This document shows positions 1 through 16,641 of a stretch of DNA of 64,000 nucleotides, in pieces; position 1 is the first letter of the stretch, and each line of letters begins with the position of its first letter. The DNA is taken from contig ML978135.1 of the NCBI GenBank assembly GCA_010015805.1, positions 248,001-312,000 on the forward strand. Reading direction: 5' to 3'. The notes under the pieces were generated by a model. It worked only from the letters and a program-made list of their open reading frames with translations. It was not told the DNA's origin and ran no database searches. Source of the stretch: Rhizodiscina lignyota. Its lineage: Eukaryota. Position numbers and translations under genes: made by a program.

Positions 1-250
1 AGCGAAACCTGGGGAAATGCTTCACGTGCAAGCCAAGCCTCCGCCCGCAGAGCCGCATCGCCGCCACGAAATTTCCGTCTCGTTGCTTTCATCGTGTGTC
101 TCCGCCGTCGATCCTTCCACCTTCCACCGGGTCGCTCCTTTTCGAACACCATACTCTTCTAGCTGAGCGTGAGGCTTGGCTCCGCGCAAGAGTGTTCGAG
201 TGCTGTGAGAGAGCGGTAGAAGGGGTAGAAAGAGTTATTGTTGCTTCAAG

Positions 251-1126
251 ATGAACGCGCCTGATAGGTGAGCTTTTCCTTTCGACACTTGGTGTATCAC
301 ATCCATAAAGATGCAGTTACTACCTCTGTTAGGATTCTCTCCCAGCAGAGCTCTTGTATGCGCATCGCGTCGGGTGACTGGGTCGTTGCTGCCTCACGGT
401 TGAAATGAGCAGTAACACGCGACTTCCCTATTCCAACACACACCACAAACTGTATTTCCTTTGCGCTTTCAGAGTTCACACACCTCTACGATTTCTCTTT
501 CACACTGTCTGCAATGCCTCACATCGCTGAAACCGCGCCTGACAGATTCGAGCTCTTTATTCTCGGCGACGGCGAGAAGAAGGTGACATGGAACCTTGAT
601 ACAAGTAAGGCCACCTTCGAGCACACATCGTTTCCATATACAGCCCTCCTCTGCCGAATATTTGGGATACTGCATTCAGCTTCAAGTTTGAAGCTCCATT
701 GAAGCAGCCAGTTACTCTCCGAGCCATCGGAAGATTGCTGGCGCGTCATGGTGGCTCAGGCTCTTATCACTGCGGCTACTTCTTCTTATGGCAAAACGTA
801 CGGCCGGAGAGGGAGACTGACAAATTACTTTTGCAGGAGTGCCAAACACCGCCATCTTCACCTTCAACAAAGAGGATCACACGCTCGGACACCTCCTCTC
901 CTCCCGACTACACAAGTACAGCTACGTCCAATTCTCGGCATATATCATTCCACATCCGCTTCTACCTTCCTTCGACCTGCGCGTCACGACAGACGGCAGT
1001 GTAAGCCCGAAAGATGCGATCGTCCAGGCGTGCAGGGATATTGTCGGGGAGTTGGACCAGCTGAGTCGGGAGTTCACAAAAGAGTGGGAGTTGAAGAAGA
1101 TTGCAAATACTGAATCTAGGAATTAA
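251..1126 (+). CDS. RPB11: RNA polymerase II subunit RPB11 (3 exons: 251-267, 546-604, 837-1126)
   Basis: Spliced translation MNAPDRFELFILGDGEKKV...RVPNTAIFTFNKEDHTLG...HP...EF is the recognisable RPB11 signature; both introns are GT-AG. Confidence 0.95.
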
Positions 1127-1959
1127 AGTATCTTCTTTGGATCTGGATCTTCTACCGTCGGCACTTGCATTTGAAATGGAGTTTTGGAGATTTGAAAGGC
1201 GGATGGCACTCGGAAATCGGAATGATACTGGAATGAGGCTACACATTCGGTCGGTCGGCGTAAAATGAAATGTATGTCGGACCGTAGCTACAAAAGGCCC
1301 ACTTCTCCCGGGCTATTTTTCCAAGTTCAATAGAATTTGGAATTAAAATGACAGTTCTTGGCTATGCCGCGGTACAGTAAACACTTACTCATCCACCCCT
1401 CCGCTCCATTCCGCCAAGACCTTTTACCGGAACCAGTTCAATAATCTTGTCTGCGATTTTTATCCGTTTCGCTAGATCTCTGAGTTTGAATTACCCGCGT
1501 CCCCTACTTGCCCTATCTGCATCCCGATGCGGCGCCGCGCGGAGAGGCGACGATTAGTCAGTAGGTAGTCTGCTTGGCGAGTACGAGTAGGTGTAGCACG
1601 AGTACGTCTGGCACTTCGCGAAGCTGTCCCTGAACGCCACTCCTGCAACTCGCGGCCCTCCAGCCTCTCGTATTTGCAGCCGCGTCAATCAGAGGCTCTG
1701 AATTGATGACAGTTCTTGCATCGACCTATCCGCAAGTCTCGGCCCTGCCCGATCCTCGCCCCGATCCTCGTTCGTAGAACTGCTAGATGATGCAACTTAA
1801 ACCTCTAGCAGCTTCTTGCCTGTTGCCGAACCAACTTCCAGAATAGCTGAAGGCAACACGGTATAAGTATATAGCTCAATTTCCTGTCTCAATTTCAGTT
1901 TCAGCTGCTAGGCAAGTTTTCGAGTCGCTGCACACTGTTTACTTCACCCGCTCAAGCAA

Positions 1960-3224
1960 ATGCGAGCTCAATTGCTTTCCGTAGCTCTCGTAGCTACCCT
2001 TGTCTCAGCTGAGCCATGGGGTCACCCATCATGGCAGTCGAAAGATTCTTGCATTGAATTCTTCGTATCCGTTCCAGTTGATACGGTGACTTATCCACCT
2101 CTGTTCCCGCCCTTTGCAAATCAGTACGAGGCAACGGAGAATCTCCTTCAATCGACGAGTCGTACTGCTCCTCCTGCGACCGCCGTACTAGGCGAGCCAA
2201 AGAACATAAGCACCACATTCAAAATCAGCGCGAAGTACTGTCCACCAGCTGGTCATGGTTATGGCGAGAGCGTCGACACTGTTCTCCTCCTGACCCATGG
2301 TCTTGGATTCGATAAGAGGTAGGCTTCCCCACGATTCAACTCAAATGCTCCGACTAACGCAAAGTCTAGCTACTGGTCCTTCGAATTCCCACCGGGCGAC
2401 CCATCGAAGTACAGTTTCACCGCGCACGCCACTCCCAAAGGTTTCGCGACACTCTCCTACGACCGCCTGGGCTGCGGCTCCTCGGAACACCTGGACCCTT
2501 ACAACACCATCCAAGCGCAAATCGAGCTTGCAACGCTCATCTCACTTACCAGACTCCTGCGCGAAGGCAAACTGCACCACAGCGTGCCTGTGCCGAAGAA
2601 AGTCGTCCATGTCGGCCACTCCTGGGGCAGCCTTCTGTCCAACGGGCTTGCGTCGGCTGCAGGTGATCTCACTGATGGCATTGTCCTGACTGGCTTCTCG
2701 CACTTGGTGATATACCAGCAGTGGTTCTTGCACAGCACTGGATACCATCTTGCGAGCCTGAATCAGCCGAAGAGATTCGGAAACTTTGAGTCGGGCTATC
2801 TGACATGGGGCGACCAGGTCTATAACCAGTATAGCTTCCTCACTTGGCCATTCTTCGACCCAGGAGTGTTGAAGTTTGCGGAGGACAACAAGTGGCCGTT
2901 TACCGCGGGCGAGTTCTTGACGGGAGGCTTCGTGCCTGTTGTTTCTCCGGGGTTCAAGAAGCCGGTGCTGGTAAGCAGATTGTCATTATACATCGTTAGT
3001 TATGTGTGCTAATGGAGTTGTAGATGATGGTTGCCGAGTTCGATCTCATCTTCTGCGGCGCGAACTGCACGGGTATTGTCTCGGGACCGGCCCACCAGGT
3101 GTTCCCCGATGCCGACCTGCAGATCTATGAGCAGCCGAATACGGGGCATGGTATGAATCTGCATTTCAATGCGACCGGTTGGTATGATGTGGTGTTTGAT
3201 TGGGTTAAGAGTCATGATCTGTAA
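1960..3224 (+). CDS. Secreted alpha/beta-hydrolase (3 exons, approx. 1960-2318, 2370-2970, 3024-3224)
   Basis: Signal peptide MRAQLLSVALVATLVSA; LLTHGLGFDK, YDRLGCG and GHSWG nucleophile elbow; EFDLIFC and GHGMNLH (catalytic His). Confidence 0.85.
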
Positions 3225-3499
3225 GATGATTTGCGTGAGAAGATGGCGGCCGGGGATTCAGCATGCAAGTATGTAATCGCATAGTGTCGTAGTATGATTA
3301 GAGATTTCGATACCAATTGCACATTTCATTCGATTTTGCGATAAGATACACGTCCTTTTGGCTTTTAAAATAAATTCATTGGACGGACATTGTGCTGACT
3401 TGAGTTCATATAATCCGAAACTTCTGGAGTTCCAGCTGATCTAATCTCGAATCTCGATGCCCGATCTTTGCGCAGTTCGCAGGTAACACCTTTTCCATA

Positions 3500-4530
3500 A
3501 TCGTTGGTCTTTCCGAGCTTTGAAGCACACACCAGCAAACCGGCGCCTGGAGTAAGCATTCTCCAATGAGGCGATAATGCTCTCCACCTTCACGTTTCCG
3601 CAAGACGAAGGGATTAACTGCTCCTTCGAACAAACATCTCAGGTCGGTATCAACCGTCCCGGTGGGCCAAGGGCAATGTGATTGCGCATGAGGAGTATCT
3701 TCCTTCCTTCTCCGAAAACAGAAAGGCGTCCACATGAATATAGCCTGCGAAAATGGCTGAGAACGCCCCTCATCTTCCTGAGCGCATTGTTTAATCTGAG
3801 AATACCCCGTCTCAGCTTCTGGCTCTTTTGATCTGTTCCAAGTTTGTTTAATATCTTCCTCAATCTGTTTCGTGATGTTCCACTTATCATCGTTCAAGTT
3901 GCTCTATTCATCATCCTCAACATAGTTCGATGATTTCCCTCTCCTAAATTGTAACGTGATCGGTATATGATGGGAAATTCCAATCGGCTGTCTATGGAAT
4001 TATGATATCCGGGAATCTCCAGCCAATCAGTGACAAAGTTCTTCCAGCTTATTGAATGGAATTGTGGGAGATATTCCAGAATCCAGAAATAAATAATGAC
4101 CTGAATCGTCAGTAACAACATTCGTCGAATTCAAGAGGATACTTGGAACATAATGATGGAATATTAGACTTCATGACTCGTCGTCGCAAGAAGATACCGA
4201 TCCGATAATACTCCCGAAATCTATGGTCTCGTAGTAAGCTAATATCCATCAATAACATCAAGGAAGCGGGCGAGGGCCCGTGGTGCAAACGTTCTGCTTC
4301 GAACTTTGCCACGACTGTCTCCATTAAGAAGCCGCGAACTACGAACTCGCTGTGCTGCGTAATTCCGAACCAGGGGTTCATTGGCCCACCGGAAACGCGT
4401 AAGACTTTGCTGGACGGCGGTAGGCTTTATAGTGTCCACAAGATGGGCTCGGGACCTTTAGGGATGGAGGCAGAGAACTTTGGAACCCATGATGGTGGGC
4501 TTCCAGTGAACCCTGAGTTATAAAAATCTA
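3500..4530 (-). pseudogene. Decayed C-terminal part of a HET-domain-type gene
   Basis: Minus-strand frames give PPSWVPKF (LPSWVP-like), HIALGP...LFEGAVNPFVLRK...YRLIGEC, broken by stops and frameshifts. Limits are approximate. Confidence 0.6.
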
Positions 4531-4708
4531 CCATATTGAATATGCGGAACCCTCCACTCTTGCTAATGCAATACTCAGTTACTTCTCGAAATATGTCCGC
4601 ATGGAGTGTTATATAATCGGGCTTACGTGCATCGGAGTGCGCGGAAATATCCTACTCTTTCTATAGCCTTACTAGACCTGCAAGTCTCTCTATCCACTTC
4701 GACGGGAG

Positions 4709-5813
4709 CTACATTTCAGCATCAATCTGAACTGAGCTTGGAGGCTGTTTCCTGCTGAAATCAGGTTTCACGGTATGCTTCCTCTCTGAAACCCAATCCC
4801 TTATTGCTTGGAAGTCACGACACGTATGAGTGACATCGGAGACGACATAATTCCTTCCCAGACCTGGAAAATATTTCGTCGGAACCGGTGTGATGTCGCC
4901 GGCACACATGATGTATTGACGGATTTGCTCAATGCAGTGGCCTTGGGATTTTCTCAGCAGTGTTCATCATGTCAATAATGTGGCTCACCTTGATGGAGCA
5001 ACTGGTCTTCCGACATCCTGATTGAATAGTATCTTGGAAAGAGCCATTTCCGTATTTCGTGCTGTCACTGTCAGTACCTCTCCGTTCGGATAACATTGAT
5101 TGTCTTACAACGCAGTGCAACGTGTGAAACATGTCAAGCCTTGAACTTTGTAAGCGTTGATCTCAAAGACTTATTCCAGTGAACCAAGAATTACCCTGCC
5201 CGATAGCCACCAGCAGCATAGTTCCAGTACTGATCATATTCGTCTCCCCAATGATCTCTCGCTTCTTCCTCGGTTATCAAGAAGTAACGATCTATGACTG
5301 AGTCAATTTCGCTATCGATCCCTGACATTTTCACATTCCTTGCCTCGTAAAAGATCGTCCCATGCCTCGTCAATCTGCGGGTTCGGAAGGCCAACATATT
5401 TGATCGGATCAGAGTGAGGAACATAAGGAGTACCATCGGCCCTGAATTCGGGGCTTCCAGTAAAAGTAACAAGCGATTTTCTCAATGCCGACTTCGCAGG
5501 CCCTGCTTAAAGTTAGGTTGAACACCTTTCTGCATCGGAAATGCGTACCAAAATCTGTTTCATATTCAGAAATGAGGCCGGCCGATGTACCCTCCAATTG
5601 GGCAGTCGATGTACATTCCAACTGTTTTGGGAACATGTAAAGACCAAGCGCGACGAAAGCGAAGAATATAGTCGAACAAATCCACGGAATAGAGCCTGTC
5701 TCACTCCAGAAGGTCCTTCTCAGTCCATAGTCGAGTTCCTCTGCATGGCTTTGGTGAGCGCTCGACTTTAGTGGGACATACTTCGCTTGCTTGCTCAAGC
5801 GAAGCCAATGCAT
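4709..5813 (-). CDS. UstYa-like / DUF3328 oxidase, copy 1 (6 exons: 5813-5549, 5502-5344, 5291-5195, 5139-5109, 5061-4989, 4941-4709)
   Basis: N-terminal TM helix; YVGLPNPQIDEAWDDLL; GLDMFHTLHCV and HQGHCIEQIRQYIMCAGDITP (two HxxHC motifs); HTCRDF...W tail typical of the family. Confidence 0.92.
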
Positions 5814-6503
5814 AGTTAGACCAGCACGGGATGGGAATTAGATTTGACAAAGTGTAACAACCTTCAGGACGGCAAGTCTCGCAATTCCAGGAGAAATGGC
5901 AGCAAAAGGGCGAAAAGTGCAGGAAAATAGGGTCAGAACGCAGCGTCTTAGTTGTGCGGTTTTTGGTTCGTCGCCTCGCACATCAGTCCGTAGCGAGTAT
6001 AGAGATTACGATGCCACGCCATCATGCGGTGTGTCTGACATGAGAGCGCATCCTGTCAGCCTTCTCCATGTTTTTGGAGCCTTGAAAATCTGCGGGTCAT
6101 AACGGAACTGCTTTCAATTATCAAGTTCCACCGAGTCGGGATCGTTGGCGGCTGGAAAGGCCGTCCGCAATGCCCGAAGATGGAAATGGCAAAGAGCCCG
6201 ACTGTCATTTCATCCTTTCCCAATCTCAATCCCTATCTAGCGGAGCCTCATTTTCAACAGCAAGCACTACCGCTTCATGGTCGCACAATGCTTGAACCTT
6301 TGCTAATGAGGGAAACCCACGTAGTAGGCTCCGCACTATATCATAAAGTATTATTATTATGCAGAGCAAGCGAGTAAAAGGCACCGTAATCGACATTAAA
6401 CTTCTGCTAACGAAGAATCAATCCGAAATCAGATCCTATCAAAGCACAGCCGTCTTCGCAGCCTCCAAACAATGGCTATGCACCATTCTTGCCACCCATG
6501 TTC

Positions 6504-7597
6504 TCAATCGCGTTTCTCATTGCCATCTCTCCATTCCTTAAAGAATTTGTTCCCTGGGAATTTCCACCAGACACTCGTAAGATCCTCCCAAGGGAGTTGA
6601 TCAGCTGGGGGATCATTCAAGATCTTATCAATTTCATCCTTTGAGAGTAACGGGTCAAATGAAGCTGGAATTTGGTGATCTTTCGCCCAGTCCTGAACCT
6701 TCTCAAAATTACGACATGTGTGGCTCGTTGCTATGCGAGGGAATATTCCGGTGGAGATGGGCATATTAACATGCCATGAATTCGGGGATACATCTGCATT
6801 ACACATCAAGGCCTGGCGAAGGGCGTCGATACAATGCTCTACAATTAGAATATGTTAGACTCTTATTCTACGTATGTCACACCAGGAAACTTACCCCAAT
6901 GCCACCAGCCAGTCCAGTTACGATTTATCTGTCCATTCTCAATTCTCCACATATGAGGGTATCTTTCAGGCCAGATTGCTTTCCGAAGGTCGTTCAAACA
7001 ATGTAGCTGATGAAAAACATCTAGCTGCACCAAGTACTGCTTCGTTCCGGGAATATTTAGTGTTGGGTGAGGTAATCTGGCCGCTTCTTTCTCCGAGATT
7101 ACACTATTTCCAACTGGTACAGCAGTTAGTTCTGGGCTAAATCACTTAATTCTCCTCGCTACAGATCTTACAATTATACAATTCCTCCCATAGTCTATCG
7201 GTTTTATTCGTAGGGACTCCCATGTATTTTCCCGTCGTAAAGAATGTAGCATCAAATCTCTGTGGATGATACTCAATCACCGAATTTGCTGGCGCTATGT
7301 CAAAGAATAGAGTTAGCTTATGAACATTTCGAACATCTCTTTCAAGTACTTACACCATATTCCTAGTGTTGGGTCTCTCGTCTGAGTAGGGCGTGTAACA
7401 ATAATGAGAAGAAGAATACAAAGCGTGATGTTTAGGATATATGATAAGACAAGAGGAAGTTTGCAACACCTGGAAGCCGCTTTGGCTGCTTCCTCAGAGC
7501 TGTCATCCTGCAGTAGCGTCTTCTCTTCATCTAGAACTACTTTCTCCTCTGCATCCTCATACGGGTGCTCGACTCGATGATAAGTCCAAGGTGCCAT
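6504..7597 (-). CDS. UstYa-like / DUF3328 oxidase, copy 2 (4 exons: 7597-7354, 7294-7172, 7113-6895, 6838-6504)
   Basis: TM helix then SPANSVIEY; YMGVPTNKTDRLWEELY; LDVFHQLHCLNDLRK; HWEHCIDALRQALMCNADVSP; HTCRNFEKVQDWA. Confidence 0.93.
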
Positions 7598-8060
7598 TGC
7601 TGATAGTCATAGAGCGGAGAAAATCTAAAGAGAAGAAAGTCTAATAAGCACGAATAATCTCTTTTCATCTCTAAAAGCACGATAAGCACAGATCCCCACC
7701 CAGAAATCTCAAATCTCCACTTAACTAGGTTATACTATGGAAAAGCAGTTTCACAATATAACAATACTTAGAATATTATTTAAAACCGAAAAATTGCTCT
7801 TCCAGAAAGGGAATCACGCAACCCTGGTAATCGGGTACGATGGGGTCTATGCAGGGGGTAGTTCGCCCTATAGACCACATTACTTCGACACCACAGATAA
7901 GTCAAATCATAAATCCAGCCGAGTCCAACTATAAAATGAGCTGAGATCAGCTGAGTGCAGCTGTGCAGCTAGGATATGTAATTGTGGAGCTTCTCAGCAT
8001 TTGAACATACGTCTTCAGCGGCTTTTTGGATCGCTCAAGCTCTTCACTCACTACATGCCA

Positions 8061-8069
8061 TTTATATAA
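8061..8069 (+). promoter_or_regulatory. Putative TATA box of the precursor-peptide gene
   Basis: TTTATATAA about 100 nt upstream of ATG 8165, followed by a CA/CT-rich 5' leader. Confidence 0.4.
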
Positions 8070-8164
8070 CCTTCAAACGAATCATCCACATCTTCAGCGA
8101 CTCAATCGTCAGTCTACCACGAGCACACAATTTTCCCATATTTTTCCTCCCCTCAATTTACAAA

Positions 8165-8475
8165 ATGAGACTTGGGTCTTCTTTCTTCCTTGCGGCTCTG
8201 TCCATCATGGCCACAAATGCGGCAGCTCTCCCAAGTTAGTACTATTATAACCGAGTGTCATTAGAAAAAGCCTAACTCCTCATTTTAGGCCCTAATGCAT
8301 TGTCGCAAGATGGGATTGTACTTCCACGCGTAATTGAGCAAGGTATTTGGCTTGCGCTTTTATCAACCTAAAGGATTTCTAACTGAAACTTCTTCTAGTT
8401 CAGCAATCGAAGGAAAAGAGAGCGGAGAATAGTGTCGATAGTACCTCTTTGACAGAGTACGAGGACTATTTTTAG
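8165..8475 (+). CDS. Small secreted Kex2-type precursor peptide, 66 aa, putative RiPP precursor (exons 8165-8234, 8289-8342, 8399-8475)
   Basis: CAAAATG start context. Introns GTTAGT..CTAAC..TAG (54 nt) and GTATTT..CTAAC..TAG (56 nt) join into MRLGSSFFLAALSIMATNAAALPSPNALSQDGIVLPRVIEQVQQSKEKRAENSVDSTSLTEYEDYF*. Confidence 0.82.
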
Positions 8476-9155
8476 GATTAAAGCACAATTGGTCTTGAGA
8501 ACTGAGGATGATTGTTCTGTCGTTCTTAGTGTCCAGTGCAAAGCATAGAGTAGTCCATGGTCTCCGACTGCTTGCGTTAAGATAGAATCAATATGTCTTG
8601 TCTCCTCTTGAAACGGTTCATTCGATGTACCTTCGCCTATTACACCTTGAAGAGGTGACTTTACCATGTGATGAAATGAACGTGGACTTTCAAGGTTACA
8701 ACTTGCGTGTTCCCTAGATAGAGAGCGCAACATGCGGTAGACAGATGGAAAGATCTGCTACAATTAAGACTACACCCCGACAATGCCTGGAATTGACTTC
8801 TTTAACCGACAGGACTTCAACATCAGAACACTTTGGACATAGTTAAAGTTAAGGAACCGGACAATACCATCCTGTGTTTCAAGTGGACCGCCGATTCTCA
8901 CAAGATCCGTCTAACCAATTCGGTTCAGCTGATTTAGTCGTGTGCTTCTTCGGATGCCTCTGTAGGGTTGACCAACGACCGTCCATGTGACTGGAGCAAA
9001 AGAGTGCAGTATAACCGTCTCTCATCAAGTTGGTCCACCAGCGGGATTCGTCTTGGCTGCTATCCTAGCTTCCCCAAATTATGAAATTCAATTCTAAGGT
9101 TTCGATTCCAGCTGAAGTTGTAGGCTGTGAGGCGCGGAATGCGGAATTTACAATT

Positions 9156-9356
9156 GAGCTTCAGAATTGAACAATGAGGCGAAGCTTTAGAATTGAGCAA
9201 TGATTCAATGAGGTAAAAGCTTAGAATTAAGTAATAAGGCGAATGCTTTAGAATTAAGCAATGGTTTAATAAGGCGAAAGCTTCGGGATTGAACAATGAG
9301 GTGAGCAATGACTCAATAAGGCAAAAGCTTTAGGATTAGGTAATAACTCAAAGAGG
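9156..9356. repeat. Degenerate AT-rich tandem repeat (~6 units of AAGCTTYRGAATTRARCAATRA(...)GGCG)
   Basis: Recurrent aagctt(t/c)agaatt(g/a)a(g/a)caat(g/a)a..ggc units whose differences are mostly C/T and G/A. Confidence 0.75.
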
Positions 9357-9623
9357 ACTTCAGAACCGGGCAAGTAAACACTGCCCGAATGATTTCTTTC
9401 ATTCTTATAATAGGACTAGATAAACTACCATTACGGCGATCACAGCACTACAGCAGCACTAGTCTATCCCAATGCTATTATCCCGAAGTCCAACTTTCAA
9501 CAATTTCTTCAAACGCCATAGAACATTCGAAAATATCTAGATGCAATTTATACGTAGGCTGAGATTTAATTCAGTCCCATCGAAGTCTTTGAATTCGAGT
9601 ATGGAGGAAATTCTAAATAGCCC

Positions 9624-10016
9624 TCATCCCTCAACCTTGCAAACAACTTTGACAATGATCTCATCAAAGTTCTTGATAGAGTACGTATAACCAACTTCCT
9701 CAAAATTGAAACTCTCCACAATCTTAGATTCCTCGAAAAAGATTTTGCAAAAGACTTCACCGTGGTCGAGTGCAAGATGCCTAACAACTAGCCCTTTTCC
9801 CTTTACATGGGGAGTGATCTCGCCGTTGTAGGGGATATTGGCATAATAAGGTTTGTCAACGCCGACGATCTCCATGCCGAAAGTCTTCTCCTTCGAATAG
9901 TAGCTGGATCTCTTCTGCAAACCGATGTTTCGGACCTCGTTGATAGCAGTAGGGGTAGCGGTGACCAAGCTTGCAGCCGCGATGAAACTCTGAATGATAA
10001 GAGTATTGAAGTGCAT
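9624..10016 (-). CDS. Small secreted protein (130 aa), effector-like, with KR processing site
   Basis: Intronless ORF; signal peptide MHFNTLIIQSFIAAASLVTA; propeptide ending LQKR; two Cys; TATA-like tract about 150 nt upstream. Confidence 0.75.
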   Translation of the reverse strand: MHFNTLIIQSFIAAASLVTATPTAINEVRNIGLQKRSSYYSKEKTFGMEIVGVDKPYYANIPYNGEITPHVKGKGLVVRHLALDHGEVFCKIFFEESKIVESFNFEEVGYTYSIKNFDEIIVKVVCKVEG

Positions 10017-10649
10017 TTTGATCGATGTTGGATTTGGAGACTTGTTTCAAAGACGTGTGGAAGAGAACGATAGGTTGAAGGATATGCACTTCGTCCACAA
10101 TGAACGACTGGTTTGAGTTATGATGGTAATCGGGATAACTTGAGATGCAAGTCCGTCCTCTCTATATATATTATAGGGAATCAGCATTGGGTAATCTCAG
10201 TTTGGTGTATCGCTCTCGCCGGTCTACAGTATATGTCCACAAAAAGCAATCTTCGGGGGTCTCAGGCAAGTACGAGAAAATGCTCAGTCTGATTGGATTA
10301 ATTGCAGGCATCGCAGAACGACGAGTCGATGACCACGGTTCCGCTTACTCCTGTCCATAAGTAAGACCTTGATCGTCAATACATGAGCATTTAGCGTACT
10401 ACGACGTTAGGACCCAATTGCGCATATAAGAACATATCAAATGGTAAGCATATGGTCTTATGTGAGATTTGGTCGAGTGGATAGATTTGAATATGATATA
10501 CGAATAGGTTTTACTGCAAACGGTAACTACCTATAACTGAATAGAGATATTGGATTATTTGGGATTAGACAGTTAGGCTTGGTACGTTATTTAACGTACG
10601 AGAAAGGCCGAAAAGTTCAAGTCCGTAAAATACAGTGTTCGAGGTTAAC

Positions 10650-10960
10650 TTGACTAAATGCATATAACGTCTATCTAGAGTCGGCGGCGGAGATCTCCAC
10701 GATAACGAAATTGGCGGAGAACAGAGGCATAGTTTTTGGTCTTGAACAGCTGGGAGTCCTTCCCCACTGTCGGACACAGGAGTCTCCGATTTTACAATAT
10801 CACCATCTTCCGTGACCCATGAGTACGAGATAGCCTCGTAGCTGATAGATTCAACGGTTTGGTTCAGTTTGGTTTTTACAAGTTCGCCACAAAGGTCATT
10901 ATCATCGTCATAGCCGTACAGTAAGGACGCGAATTTGGTCAGTGCATTCCAAATGCGTGT
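10650..10960 (-). pseudogene. Decayed N-terminal HET domain remnant
   Basis: LCGELVKTKL...SYEAISYSW, then after a frameshift TKNYASVLRQFRYRGDLRRRL*IDVICI*. This matches the HET motifs YEALSYxW and RxLWIDAICINQ with Trp changed to TAG. Confidence 0.7.
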
Positions 10961-12702
10961 AGCAGCAAGATTGGCGTGTTCCCTGGTCGACGTGCTTGCC
11001 CTAGGGCGGAGCTTGGTTCGTTGTCTTACCTTCCCCTCTGAAATGAGACTTGGGTTGTGCTCGCTCTTCGTCTTCTTCATCGTTGGAGGATGATGCGCTC
11101 TTTCCCCCTGAGCGTCAAAGATGCCTTTGTGAATGCCGTTGGCGTCATCGCACCCTGCGATGTTGAAGTGGTTAAGAATACTGAGAGATTATAGTTAGGG
11201 TAAGTGAATACTTCAAGAGTTGAAGAAAGTAGCGCTGCCACTGCGAGGGGAATTTGGGAAAATGTCCGCCTCAACGTTGAAGTGGAGTTCCCCATTCAGT
11301 GGCCAGAATCTTATCAAGCCGAAGCTATTCGATTGTTCTAGGCTCTTTGAGACTTTGATTGCTTTGAGGCTGTTAGATGGCTCCAAGTCTCTTAATCGCC
11401 CCTTCAGCGTGCAACATCGGGGAAGATAGAACTGGCTCCGTCTTTTACGGCCGACATGCAATCATGCATGGGGAGGTTCAGCTGCCTTGCCTGCACGTCA
11501 GGCTGGCCAACGAGCGATCCCCACTGCGTTGGTGAGCTGCATGTGCAATGGGCGAATCATGCGAAGCTCACCCGCTCCCCTCTACGCTGGCGACAAGGAC
11601 AATGCTCGCTGTCCTAAATACCAGACTACCAGTTGCCTTATTAGACACCACTCATAGACACCTCTTGCCATTTTAAAAATTTGTCATGGGAATCCAGATA
11701 GAAGATGCAATGCATTCCAACAATGTATACCGCGCTCTTTGCTGAAATTGGAAAACTTTCAATTGCCCTAAAGGGTCATATTAGCGACCCAGGGTGGCAG
11801 AGCAATGCCGTCATCGCCTCTTCGAGTCCGAACTGGGTCATTTGCTGTTCGAAGACACGCCTCGGAAGAACAACCGCTAATAACGAAGGAGGAAAGCTTC
11901 TCGGTGTGCCGGCTTCCTGGGGCGAAGCTGGAGGACTTCTTGAATCAGAAGTTTCCGCAAGTCTTGCATTCAATATTCGCGTAAGTTCTCTCATGCCCAT
12001 TCATAAGCGCAATGCGAATGATGATCCTGCTGTAGGTTGAAATGGACCGATATGTATTCAGCATCCCAAAGGACGCAGCATTCACAGACGTAAGCTCCGA
12101 CCGCAAAATAATATTTCACCTCAGGCAAAAGTCAAATAATAAAGGGCATAGCTGACTAAGCGACTGCAAGGGACATTGGACAAGGCTGCATTGCAAGATC
12201 TGAGGGAGGGCGCTGGCGAAAAGGGGCTGAAGAACTCCTCCCCCTCCGGCGCCGCCACATCCTCACCATTGCACGCCCTGTGACCCCATGCCATGATGCC
12301 CAGAGCTGGCGAGGCTCTGCTACTGCACGCTGAATCATTTCTCTCCCGATTATTGTGCGTGAGATCGGTTCTCTGTGAAATGGCCCGACTAGCGTGGTGC
12401 TTGGCAAAGTTTCGTTCACCTGGATCTCATTTTCCGGCTCAAGCCCAGCCTCGCAGCAGCTTTCTCGAGCAAGTGATCTCTGCGCAACCAATCTCACGAG
12501 AGTCACGATACTCTAGCTATGATGGACGAGCAGCTGCCGAGGATAGTAGTGTGGAGGCATAGCGGGTATAAGTAGGTATGCATTGCAAGGATCCGACGCG
12601 CTGGAATTCCATAGGATATTTGTTGCGCGTAGCACATCACCGTGCTGTCGTCTCCCGTCCAGCGCGATTGTCTATTCATCTGGATCGAGCGCTAAAACGA
12701 CA

Positions 12703-15019
12703 ATGACGGACGTGAAGCCGGACGACTCGCACTCCGCGGCAGATGTTGAGCACAGCGAAGTCACGCCGAAGCTGTCGCACGACGTGGAGAAGTCCTCCTC
12801 ACAGGAGAAGCCAGCGGCGACATCTTATATTCCTCAGAGCGACGAGGAATATGACGTGACGTATGTTCATTTTGCTCTTCGCCTTAGTCGGGCGTCTTCC
12901 TGGGCCACGACCAGCTCTCATACCCCAATCAACTAGTACACAAACCACAAGATGTGTAGCTAATTCTTTACAGCCTCAAAACATGGCTAGTTGTCTTTAT
13001 TCTCTCCTGCTCGTACGGCATCTCATTCTGGATCGTGCCTGCCTTGTCCCCAGCAGTTGCGATCGTTGCAACTGAGCTCGGCGATGCTACGAAATCGGCT
13101 TTCTTCGTGTCCACGTATGTTTGCCCTTTAACAGATCAGACAGGATCGGTTCTTAGAGGAGCTCTACTAATTGCTTTACAGTTATCTTATCGCTATCACT
13201 ATAACATTCATGATTTGTGGCGCAAACAGCGACTTATTTGGCCGACGATGGTTCATCGTCGGAGGCAATGTCCTGTTATTTATCGGCTTCATTGTCGGCG
13301 GCACAGCGAAGAGCAATAACGGAATGATTGCTGCTATGGCACTCATCGGCATCGGCGCTGGAAATTCCCAACTGGCGGCCTTTGCCTTGCCAGAACTTCT
13401 GCCAAACAAGTGGAGGCCTGCAGCCGTTGTCATGGCTGATGGCGTTCTGTTTTTCACTGTCCTCATTGGCCCAGTTGCTGGACGCTGGTCCGGCGCCCAC
13501 GGGCACTCGTGGCGATGGTTATTCTATGCCCCGGCAATTGCGGTTTTCGGATCCTTTGTAGGTTTATACCTCTTTTACTACCCACCAAAGCATCCTCGAG
13601 GATTACCGTGGAACCAGGCCCTCCGAGAGCTCGACTATGGCGGCGCCTTGCTGTTCATTACCTCCACCGCTTTGATCCTGACCGGCGTCAACTACACCAC
13701 GATTCGAAAGTCCTCGGACCCGGTAGTCATCGGCCTACTGTGCTCTGGCTTTGGAACTTTAGTTCTTTTCATCCTATATGAAACTTTCATGCCTCTCAAG
13801 CAGCCTCTGACACCAACGCGTGTGTTCACTCGTGGTAAAGGCCGGGAGCTTACCGCACCCTTTGTGGCAGCTTTCGTAGTCACTGTATGTGGAAATTGAG
13901 CAGGACTGTATTTGCACAATAACTGATTGAGACCAGATGTTTTATTATGCGATCAACATTATCTACCCGACAATGATCAATGTCTTCTTCTCAGCTGAAG
14001 GCGATTACAAGTACCAGGCAGTGCTTACTCTCCCGAGCAACCTGGGTCTCATTCTCGGCGCTGTCTTGCTCACGGCCTTCGGCTTAAAGATCGGCCACTG
14101 GCGCTGGACACTCACAGGGAGCGTCTTTATCATGGTATTCTTTGGTGCACTTTTGGGTGTGGGTACACCGGAGCGCAAAGGGTATTTACGATCAGCAGCT
14201 CAATATCGAATTGTACTGACGGTTCTAGGACAATGATCGCGATGGTATTCATTGGCCAGGTCGGCTTCGGCTGGGCACAGTACCTCTCCATCGCTTACGT
14301 ACAGTTCGGATGCGACCAGGTTGAGCTGGGCATTTCTGGCGGCCTTGCAGGTGTGGCGCGTTTCGCCGGCGGTGCTGTGGCTATATCAGTTTACACCGCA
14401 ATCCTCACCAACGTCCAAGGGAACCACATGGCTAAGCTCGTTCCCCCGGCAGCCGAAGCAGCGGGCCTACCCTCTAGTTCAGTCCCTGCTCTAATGGCTG
14501 CTCTGCCATTAGGATCTGCTGCCATTGCCCAGGTTCCAGGGATCACGACTCAGATAGCCTTGGCTGCTGCAAAAGCGTTCCAACAGAGCTATGTTATTGG
14601 CCTGAGGACAACTGCACTATCATCTCTTGCATTTGGTATCCCGGCAATTATTGGTAAGTTCAACCCATCGAGCTTTTGGACAATGCAACTTGGGCAAATC
14701 TTTCAACGACCGCTTTCATTACGCCTGAGGCTGAGAGCTTGAAAAGCTCGAGGCTCTGTTAGAGGCCAAGTTCAAAGTCCTTCTGTGATACAAGCCGGCC
14801 TCCTAGCAACAGTTTCAACGGCTGCTCAGCAGGCTCGTCCGATGGATGGAAGACTGTCCAGTTTGCGTTGATCACAAGCTTGCCCCATCGTTTGATTTGC
14901 AGTATACTGATCCATGAATAGCTTGCATCTGCTGCCAAGACATCGACGAGAAGATGACCAACAAGATTGAGGTCTTCTTGGAGAACGACAAGAATGCCGA
15001 TAAGAACGTTTACCACTAG
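12703..15019 (+). CDS. MFS transporter, TRI12 (fungal trichothecene efflux pump)-like family; multi-exon, last exon 14921-15019
   Basis: SDLFGRRWF, PELLPNKWR, WRWLFY, FYYPPKHPRG, LDYGG motifs; many TM helices; terminal exon CQDIDEKMTNKIEVFLEND. Confidence 0.9.
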
Positions 15020-15305
15020 CATGTCAATAGGGTAGGGTCTCTGCGAATGGAGATGGATATGTACTGTTTGTGTGGAAGCAAATGCTCTTGAAATAGTTCC
15101 CAAGTATGTATGTTATACTGATATTCGATTTGGAATGAGTTCAAACTATCTCGATCCTCCTCCCATGCACCAAGGCAGGGTGGACTGCTTGATGGGGTTG
15201 TTCGTTATCAATATGCCAGTACTCCATGGAGAAGGAGATCTTGCGTTCTAGAGAGCCAGAGACTGCCCCCGATTTACGTATTTGGTCGATGAACGTAAAT
15301 CTTTT

Positions 15306-15540
15306 TCAGACGATATTGAATGTTTGACGAAGGAATTGTGACCGAAACTGCGATTCCAATTCCGGTTTTGTGCGCATATCCCAATGCAACAATTTGCAAA
15401 CGCATTGGCCTACAAGGAGATAACGTGTATCCTGCGCCGATTTTCGCAATACAAAGGGATGCTCAGAGCCCTCAAGTAAATATATTGAATCGTCTACTTG
15501 TGAACGAGGCATACGAACACAGTTTCGGATGATGTGAGGT
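15306..15540 (-). pseudogene. Isolated C-terminal tail of a HET-domain-type gene
   Basis: DDSIYLLEGSEHPFVLRK...YLLVGQC...FNIV* matches the typical terminal motif of HET proteins; no upstream coding continuation is visible. Confidence 0.55.
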
Positions 15541-15825
15541 GGTCAGGCTAGGGTTAGGGTCAGGCAATACGGCTGGAAAAATAGAAAAAGCGATGCCGAA
15601 GGGATTTTTATAGTCGCCTAAGGAACCGCAGCCTTCTTTCCTTAGCACCTCACGTTTATAAACCTTATAACAGCGAGCATTGATCGAACCAGTTTCTCAA
15701 GCGCCGATTACACCTTCTATACAGACTATAGCAACACCAAAAGAAGCACTACAGCAATACTACACAAACACAACACTAAAGCACCCGCTCAGCCATAACC
15801 ACCACGCTCTTAGGCTGTGCCACGT

Positions 15826-16641
15826 CTATTCCTCGATGTACCCATTTCTCTCATCGGAGAAGAATGACATACACTCTTCGACCGTCGGTACCGCCTGTGC
15901 GTCTCTAAGTAAGTTTACCAGCTGGGTCTGCATTGATATAACAGCCTGCTTGTCTACTCGCGAAAGAGCCTCCTCGTCTACCATCCTCTCCACAAACTCG
16001 ACCAGCCCGAGCTCGCACGCCTCATTCGACTCCCAGTCCGCCTCCGGCCGGTTAACCGCACCGAGATCTAGCCCTTCGTTATAGTCGTACCGCCCCAAGT
16101 CTGTTGCCACCGCCTTCAGGAACTCCACCTCCCTGCTGGCCCCATGACGGTAGATCTCACGATCCGTCCCCAAACTGTCGCCAGTGCGCCTCTTGTGCCA
16201 GATCGCAGACTGCGTCTTTAAGCTATGCCGCCCGCTAACTTCCACACTCTCGTCGAGCCGCCACCCCCTATCGACCAGCGCGCTCTTCCGGCGCGCCAGC
16301 AGAGGTAACAGCTCGCTATCGTCCTCACGGTCTCCCATCCTATCCAGGTAGCCGAGCACTCTGCCTAGCCCGTCCGAGGCCTGTAAGTCCAGCCCCACCC
16401 GCCGGCCGACCTCCGTCGCGAACATGCGCGCAACCAAAACGCGACATGCACTGATCTGCGCATCATCCATCATGCTGCCCGACTCCAGCATCTGCACAAA
16501 CTCCGGCACTCCGACGACCTGCAGCGTCTGCACCCACGAGGCCCGTGTACAACCCCCCTCCGACGTCTTGAACGCCTTCGCAACCTCAGCACGAATCGCG
16601 TCCTCCATCTCCGCTACCGTGCCGCGAGTCAGCATGATCAA
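15826..16641 (-). CDS. Hypothetical protein, 271 aa, intronless, no recognisable family
   Basis: Long GC-rich open frame with protein-like composition (acidic, helical-looking). Confidence 0.55.
   Translation of the reverse strand: MIMLTRGTVAEMEDAIRAEVAKAFKTSEGGCTRASWVQTLQVVGVPEFVQMLESGSMMDDAQISACRVLVARMFATEVGRRVGLDLQASDGLGRVLGYLDRMGDREDDSELLPLLARRKSALVDRGWRLDESVEVSGRHSLKTQSAIWHKRRTGDSLGTDREIYRHGASREVEFLKAVATDLGRYDYNEGLDLGAVNRPEADWESNEACELGLVEFVERMVDEEALSRVDKQAVISMQTQLVNLLRDAQAVPTVEECMSFFSDERNGYIEE

Follow-up and report, generated by a model that had tools for sequence, protein, structure and literature searches.

A predicted single-core peptide precursor beside two UstYa/DUF3328 genes in Rhizodiscina lignyota and its V-D-x6-Y relatives

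Introduction

Can a fungal peptide precursor carrying one core, rather than a series of repeats, be the substrate of UstYa/DUF3328 enzymes? The question is raised by a short, unrepeated secreted frame adjoining two UstYa/DUF3328 genes in Rhizodiscina lignyota, within a 64,000-nucleotide stretch of contig ML978135.1 (positions 248,001 to 312,000), which is called the window below. KEPs are defined by at least three tandem repeats of at least eight residues (PMC7329392), and a lichen survey of 2025 raised a single core as a possibility for precursor-less DUF3328 clusters (PMC12048977).

Results

The precursor gene

Splice modelling gave a three-exon gene for a predicted secreted precursor of 66 residues (Table 1). 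Its N-terminus, judged by hydropathy, reaches a value of 2.42 over residues 7-16 and includes an Ala-rich cleavage region. The translation bore out the preliminary description of a single KR followed by an acidic, Ser/Thr-rich tail of 17 residues with its aromatic residues confined to the last five positions: the KR at residues 48-49 is the sole dibasic site of the precursor, the tail contains five Asp/Glu, five Ser/Thr and no Lys/Arg residues, and the only aromatic residues of the post-signal chain are Y62, Y65 and F66. The gene models likewise agreed with the description of a single-copy precursor without repeats beside UstYa genes. No internal repeat was found in the precursor (the best eight-residue self-match had three of eight residues in common), no further core-like text was found downstream on the plus strand (8476-11500), and exon 3 retrieved only itself from its own genome (one of one candidate). 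Under the rule of at least three repeats (PMC7329392), repeat-based (KEP) mining would miss this precursor, as had been anticipated.

Seven splice models of the precursor were compared, three of which give the Y-E-D-Y-F tail, three another tail and one an early stop. The preferred model uses the first AG past the branch site and the donor with the best context (AAG/GT); the intron-2 donor has no G at +5. When the script was checked on a gene from a relative, its model and the annotated product had 72 of 73 residues in common. A single DNA run spans 4600-8700 with zero differences and may be the source of this very sequence. Judged from the sequence, the feature at 8399-8475 is real and is the predicted last exon of a single-core precursor. 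Downstream of the gene, a degenerate AT-rich tandem repeat with a unit of about 30-40 bases was spotted by eye on the plus strand (9130-9350).

Table 1. Features of the precursor locus (positions in the window)
Feature	Position	Strand	Remarks
UstYa/DUF3328 gene Y2	4709..5813	-	6 exons (one GC-AG intron), 285 aa, HxxHC at 179 and 207
UstYa/DUF3328 gene Y1	6504..7597	-	4 exons, 306 aa, membrane helix 49-67, HxxHC at 157 and 194
Y1 C-terminal extension, subgroup marker	6507..6674	-	alignment beyond the Pfam domain
Spacer between Y1 start and precursor start	7598..8164		567 nt, divergent starts; layout shared by kin
Precursor exon 1	8165..8234	+	ATG at 8165; predicted signal peptide (residue 1 to about 21), then the first part of the pro region
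Precursor intron 1	8235..8288	+	54 nt, GT-AG, branch-like site; predicted splicing
Precursor exon 2	8289..8342	+	pro region
Precursor intron 2	8343..8398	+	56 nt, GT-AG; branch site 8379, first AG 8398; predicted splicing
Precursor exon 3	8399..8475	+	last part of the pro region, then KR and the tail of 17 residues; stop 8473-8475
KR, predicted Kex2 site	8416..8421	+	residues 48-49
Putative recognition segment	8434..8457	+	positions 1-8 of the family register, with V, D and S unchanged and 4 and 8 substituted; putative role
Putative core	8458..8472	+	Y62 (family Tyr), E63, D64, Y65 (family Trp position), F66; putative role

The neighbouring enzyme genes and their surroundings

Y1 and Y2 both match PF11807 above the cut-off and are intact, each with an N-terminal hydrophobic helix and two HxxHC motifs. 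The spacer of 567 nt is probably a shared promoter of Y1 and the precursor. The best relative of Y2 adjoins the precursor of a kin locus, L079, with 43-61% identity by exon. The Pfam scan covered 101 open frames from positions 1-16,000 of the window and the preceding 10 kb, a design in which short exons could be missed, and identified an alpha/beta hydrolase, transporters, a transcription factor, a nitronate monooxygenase and an RNA polymerase subunit. With the same proviso for short exons, none of the 101 frames matched a tyrosinase, methyltransferase, P450, peptidase, NRPS or PKS family, and no reductase was seen near the window locus.

Two further candidates were set aside. RIP damage is unsupported as an explanation, the composite RIP index being below zero in every interval ending at or before 16,000. 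Tyrosine sulfation occurs in plant DY peptides; sulfation of the tail was dropped because the scanned region contains no sulfotransferase.

A second secreted gene lies at 9624-10016 on the minus strand. The encoded protein, of 130 residues, carries a KR site and belongs to no Pfam family; it resembles small proteins of ascomycetes in unnamed families, and the kin loci yielded no match to it. A secreted alpha/beta hydrolase, also without a match in the kin loci, is encoded at 1960-3224 on the plus strand, about 1.5 kb past Y2, and is a possible trimming enzyme. Broken-up frames without a Pfam hit lie at 3409-4381 and 10565-11295 (minus strand); by motif, they resemble the remains of heterokaryon-incompatibility genes. 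The segment 3409-3903 resembles 15399-15602 at 32%. The genome (33.4 Mb, 33 contigs) gave 76 UstYa exon matches among 90 candidates. In crude models of its other UstYa loci (L034, L036, L042, L056, L062, L064 and L065; L038, L054, L055 and L067), ordinary repeat precursors were seen, and several of the loci have short unrepeated secreted frames with Cys or dibasic sites.

A subgroup of UstYa enzymes with a C-terminal tail

The last exon of Y1, used as a query, retrieved 771 proteins. The best matches, the annotated ones among them coming from Thozetella, Scedosporium, Coniochaeta, Parachaetomium, Pseudocercospora and Cadophora, aligned past the Pfam domain by way of a common C-terminal tail. 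This tail was matched in 10 of the 150 listed proteins and in 20 of the 27 metagenome loci; in its own genome, the Y1 tail matched itself only. A word-based search for the Y1 last exon among longer proteins yielded none in 55 candidates.

The tree estimated for this subgroup has 28 rows, with L093 excluded as short and near-identical loci omitted. It comprises two loosely supported branches, with Y1 unplaced at the end of a long terminal branch. Tail identity to Y1 was 67% for L069 and L070, 50-52% for L073-L075 and 29-38% for the others. All the precursors of W type, defined in the next section, were associated with the more distant enzyme branch (29-38% identity on the tail, versus 50-67% on the nearer one). 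The sole precursor seen on the nearer branch, that of L075, is divergent: it departs from the W motif and keeps V-D-x6-Y. The precursors of the nearest enzyme relatives, L069 and L070, fall off the contig ends, and no precursor was found at L095 or at L074, which is covered over 13 kb. When a kin enzyme dimer was modelled in complex with its own kin peptide, without alignments, the median was 0.27 against a mark of 0.34.

The 13-kb locus L074 contains three UstYa genes, one of them for a subgroup enzyme that matches the Coniochaeta protein without a difference in the part that aligns. The N-terminal region of UstYa enzymes at L080, L082, L086 and L087 includes V-D-x-x-W-x-x-L-Y, which scores 12-15 bits on the precursor profile and may be either a chance helix pattern or mimicry.

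The V-D-x6-Y precursor family

The metagenome scan gave the 27 loci, 15 of which have at least 2 kb of upstream sequence, the other 12 being too short to tell. A precursor in divergent orientation was present in 13 of these 15 loci, 12 with V-D-x-[ILV]-S-x-x-L-Y-x-x-W cores (W type) and one with V-D-x6-Y cores; when near-identical loci were merged, a precursor was found in 8 of 10. The kin cores lie 1.0-2.9 kb from the matched exon, and the corresponding distance in the window is 1.6 kb. A scan for small secreted genes that was blind to the motif gave clean models at L071/72, L076/77, L079 and L081/82, a frame over the L083-85 repeats aside, and the precursors at these four sets of loci have V-D-x-x-S-x-x-x-Y-x-x-W in common. 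Those of L076/77 and L081/82 are single-core, and L078 has one core and no modelled start; four cores are present at L071, L079, L083 and L090, and L075 has at least three cores keeping only V-D-x6-Y. Across 17 distinct kin cores, V1, D2, S5, L8, Y9 and W12 are invariant and position 4 is aliphatic in all 17, with V, D and S fixed by the selection pattern and L8 and the aliphatic residue free to vary.

A profile search identified eight proteins among 140 candidates. Among the eight are four annotated single-core relatives, of 72-76 residues, from Cladosporium sp., Parachaetomium inaequale, Aspergillus piperis and Penicillium viridicatum; the Cladosporium protein and the L076 model agree in 72 of 73 residues. 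None of the 7,998 scored proteins longer than 91 residues was returned by the precursor profile, which also did not return the known four-core kin. An Atlas search with a kin precursor gave a best score of 0.82, at most a lead.

These relatives bear on the expectation that a C-terminal Tyr pair would be kept while the propeptide drifts. The first Tyr is indeed kept; the second is not, its place being taken by Trp in seven of eight independent precursors and by Ala in L075. The stretch just upstream of the Tyr, far from drifting, is the conserved part in the kin.

Kin clusters on long contigs mostly have four to six UstYa genes, together with other conserved genes absent from the window, which holds the smallest cluster seen in the V-D-x6-Y family: two enzymes and one 17-residue peptide. 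Four kin clusters share a conserved frame, about 250 residues long and outside any Pfam family, at L090:4686-5561, L082:5586-6461, L083:5779-6693 (minus) and L079:4724-5485 (plus), with 27-57% identity, and ankyrin genes recur at L077, L082, L083, L086 and L090; the window has neither.

Several relatives have features of their own. The four-core precursor of L071 (5900-6480, minus) and L072 has one exon per core, and the L071/L072 cluster includes three P450 frames and a sulfotransferase. The single-core precursors at L081:908-1183 (minus) and in P0160, P0162, P0165 and P0166 end in W-C-T-P and have a second Cys between basic sites of the pro region; their product could, on this arrangement, be two-chained and disulfide-linked. 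P0167 (MCJ1408174.1, Ptychographa xylographoides) is annotated as UstYa-like and has two family cores at its C-terminus, its enzyme part being without the His-x-Cys-Arg stretch that usually comes last; a wrongly joined gene model is the probable cause, the alternative being a true fusion of enzyme and core.

Fit of the window peptide to the family

Placed in the family register, the window peptide has V1, D2, S5 and Y9 after a dibasic site, with Thr, Glu and Tyr for the aliphatic residue 4, Leu 8 and Trp 12 of the W-type branch. At least four of the six invariant columns were recovered in 0.6% of 100,000 shuffles of the tail (P ~0.006), and the V-D-S-Y-aromatic pattern (aromatic at position 12) in 0.024% of 200,000. 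A pattern allowing any aromatic residue at both sites, written with the window peptide already known, had 33 matches in 200 kb of kin loci, all with Tyr and Trp. It had one match in the 64-kb window, the peptide itself, and two in 370 kb elsewhere in the genome, a control in which 36 of the 37 stretches were chosen around UstYa hits. On such sequence comparisons, the family match of the window peptide is more than chance.

A profile built from kin only, and representing the W-type branch only, gave the window peptide 2.2 bits, versus 23.7-44.3 bits for left-out kin. At 2.2 bits, the peptide ranked ninth of 71,349 window positions, and 81 of 410,593 control positions scored as high; on a 12-column profile, with the four leading columns off, it scored -0.7 bits and ranked 112th of 82,045. 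No relative with YxxY was found in the pattern scan of kin loci or in the profile searches of proteins. Because its score lies far below the range of the members, the window peptide appears to be an outlying member of the family, in which it is placed by enzyme subgroup, gene layout and register jointly, and not by sequence alone.

Discussion

The scheme that we consider reasonably probable, taken as a whole, is that the window encodes a functional RiPP precursor with a single core, belonging to a dikaritin-like pathway with Kex2 release and copper-dependent ring closure. The signal peptide would take the precursor into the ER, and, following known KEP processing, a Kex2 cut after K48-R49 would release the acidic 17-residue peptide. 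Y1, as a membrane-anchored, copper-dependent enzyme, would then recognise V-D-x-x-S and close a ring over Y62-E-D-Y65. Y2 may contribute a further oxidation or ring, and the N-terminal part of the peptide would be removed by peptidases of the host. The DUF3328 enzymes CctR, ApnU and AprY depend on copper and oxygen, and enzymes of this type are luminal, dimeric and mostly target sp3 C-H bonds (PMC12435403). From the pattern of a conserved stretch and, after it, two invariant aromatic residues spaced by variable ones, we infer a recognition segment and a core of four or five residues.

The bond across Y-E-D-Y is probably, by analogy, an ether from a tyrosine oxygen to a beta-carbon rather than a biaryl link, the favoured form being an alkyl-aryl ether between Y65 and Y62 in which the oxygen of one Tyr would join the beta-carbon of the other; we are less sure of the exact bond than of the scheme. 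This form is favoured because, in asperipin-2a, two core Tyr stand three residues apart and the Tyr-to-beta-carbon ethers are made with no tyrosinase (PMC6514808), and because DUF3328 enzymes prefer sp3 C-H bonds. Given the same precedent (PMC6514808), the biaryl or diaryl ether envisaged in the preliminary description is less likely. We propose, much more tentatively, that the UstYa subgroup with the C-terminal tail may read a helical V-D-x-x-S-x-x-L and link Tyr to the Trp three residues on, that the window may have switched to Tyr-Tyr, and that single-core and multi-core forms may interconvert across several ascomycete classes. No Tyr-Trp cross-link in fungal RiPPs was described in the literature searched.

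Among known systems, the asperipin-2a cluster of Aspergillus flavus (aprA, aprY, aprT, aprR) resembles the window in being small and in having a signal-bearing, Kex2-type precursor and a DUF3328 cyclase with no tyrosinase. However, AprA is repeated and served by one enzyme, whereas the window has one core in an acidic unit of 17 residues, two enzymes, an enzyme of the extension subgroup and no reductase nearby. The ustiloxin (ustA, ustYa/Yb, ustQ) and phomopsin (phomA) systems share with the window a signal peptide, KR, two UstYa-family genes and a core Tyr, but they have 16 and 8 repeats, respectively, with ED before a Y-x-I core, and require a tyrosinase and a methyltransferase, none of which was found at the window locus. 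KEPs (Umemura 2020, PMC7329392) have in common with it an ER signal, a dibasic site and a DUF3328 neighbour; the window precursor and the single-core kin do not conform to the KEP repeat rule, whereas the four-core kin at L071, L079, L083 and L090 look KEP-like and may already have been catalogued as such. Set against a broad, DUF3328-defined dikaritin, the window has the UstYa neighbour and, within putative core boundaries, the core Tyr, but a single core in place of several. The lichen DUF3328 clans R1 and R2 (PMC12048977) also consist of UstY clusters without a repeated precursor; the authors of that survey identified no precursor, whereas single-core precursors and a motif were located here. 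The plant split burpitides ArbA2/ArbB2 (PMC12186524) resemble our proposal in their copper enzyme, upstream recognition sequence and short aromatic core, with one unit being enough, but they are made by the BURP enzyme family of another kingdom, and the likeness is an analogy only.

The locus might alternatively be a decaying relic, left without a product after a larger cluster shrank and the recognition segment drifted. Such decay would be consistent with the low profile score and the three lost family positions, with a cluster of just two UstYa genes that lacks both an ankyrin gene and the conserved partner of 250 residues, and with the long terminal branch of Y1. We nonetheless consider it unlikely: none of the three frames is broken, the splice signals and all four HxxHC motifs are preserved, the composite RIP index stays below zero over 1-16,000, and the nearer-branch precursor of L075 is likewise off the W motif and yet has V-D-x6-Y.

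That the tail is a linear secreted signalling or effector peptide, with both UstYa enzymes serving another substrate, is in our view distinctly unlikely. The enzyme subgroup is linked with V-D-x6-Y precursors in 13 of the 15 informative loci, which argues against separate roles, even though a DUF3328 neighbour is missing from most KEPs and linear KEPs occur (PMC7329392). Non-ribosomal peptides are a further substrate of DUF3328 tailoring (PMC12435403), but no NRPS or PKS domain was present in the 101 frames around the locus. The second secreted gene (9624-10016) could be cited for such a reading, but its product is of the unnamed small ascomycete kind and has no counterpart in the kin loci.

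The preliminary description likened E-D-Y to the element of UstA and PhomA, which would here guide a Tyr-Tyr diaryl ether or biaryl ring. E-D-Y is present, the UstA cores have ED and KR flanks (PMC6514808), and a Y65 in the place of the kin Trp suits aromatic-aromatic coupling as well as aromatic-to-beta-carbon coupling. This likeness does not hold in the family, however: ED falls on the variable positions 10-11 and occurs in none of the 17 distinct kin cores. A UstA-style reading would leave a core of only the two residues after ED, with no Y-x-I, whereas the UstA core is Y-A-I-G (PMC6514808). With, in addition, no tyrosinase in the scanned region, when ustiloxin and phomopsin require one, and with the Tyr side chains of asperipin-2a bonded to beta-carbons (PMC6514808), we regard this reading as very improbable. 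A gene-model artefact, in which another donor or acceptor is used and the tail is untranslated, would fit the loss of the tail in four of the seven splice models and the missing +5 G at the intron-2 donor, but is highly improbable given the first AG after the branch site, the AAG/GT donor, a family register improbable in an untranslated frame and a script that was right at 72 of 73 residues for a kin gene.

Neither the V-D-x6-Y motif family nor a natural single-core DUF3328 precursor was described in the mainly open-access literature searched, and a full-text search with five short motifs returned three papers, all unrelated by title. The single-core variant follows the dikaritin scheme. Repeat number has been reported to tune yield (PMC10512285), and the surprise is limited because the scheme is retained and this effect was already on record. 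What makes the finding valuable is the family more than the Y-E-D-Y-F tail. Fungal RiPP mining presumes repeats (at least three, PMC7329392), and searches that require them miss part of the V-D-x6-Y family, for which the window and its kin provide named single-core examples and a searchable motif. Two enzymes and one 17-residue peptide make a simple system for a copper-enzyme assay, which could reveal how DUF3328 enzymes recognise their substrates and whether Tyr is joined to Trp or to another Tyr. If single-core and multi-core forms do interconvert as tentatively proposed, many 'orphan' UstYa clusters may have short single-core substrates that repeat mining has skipped.
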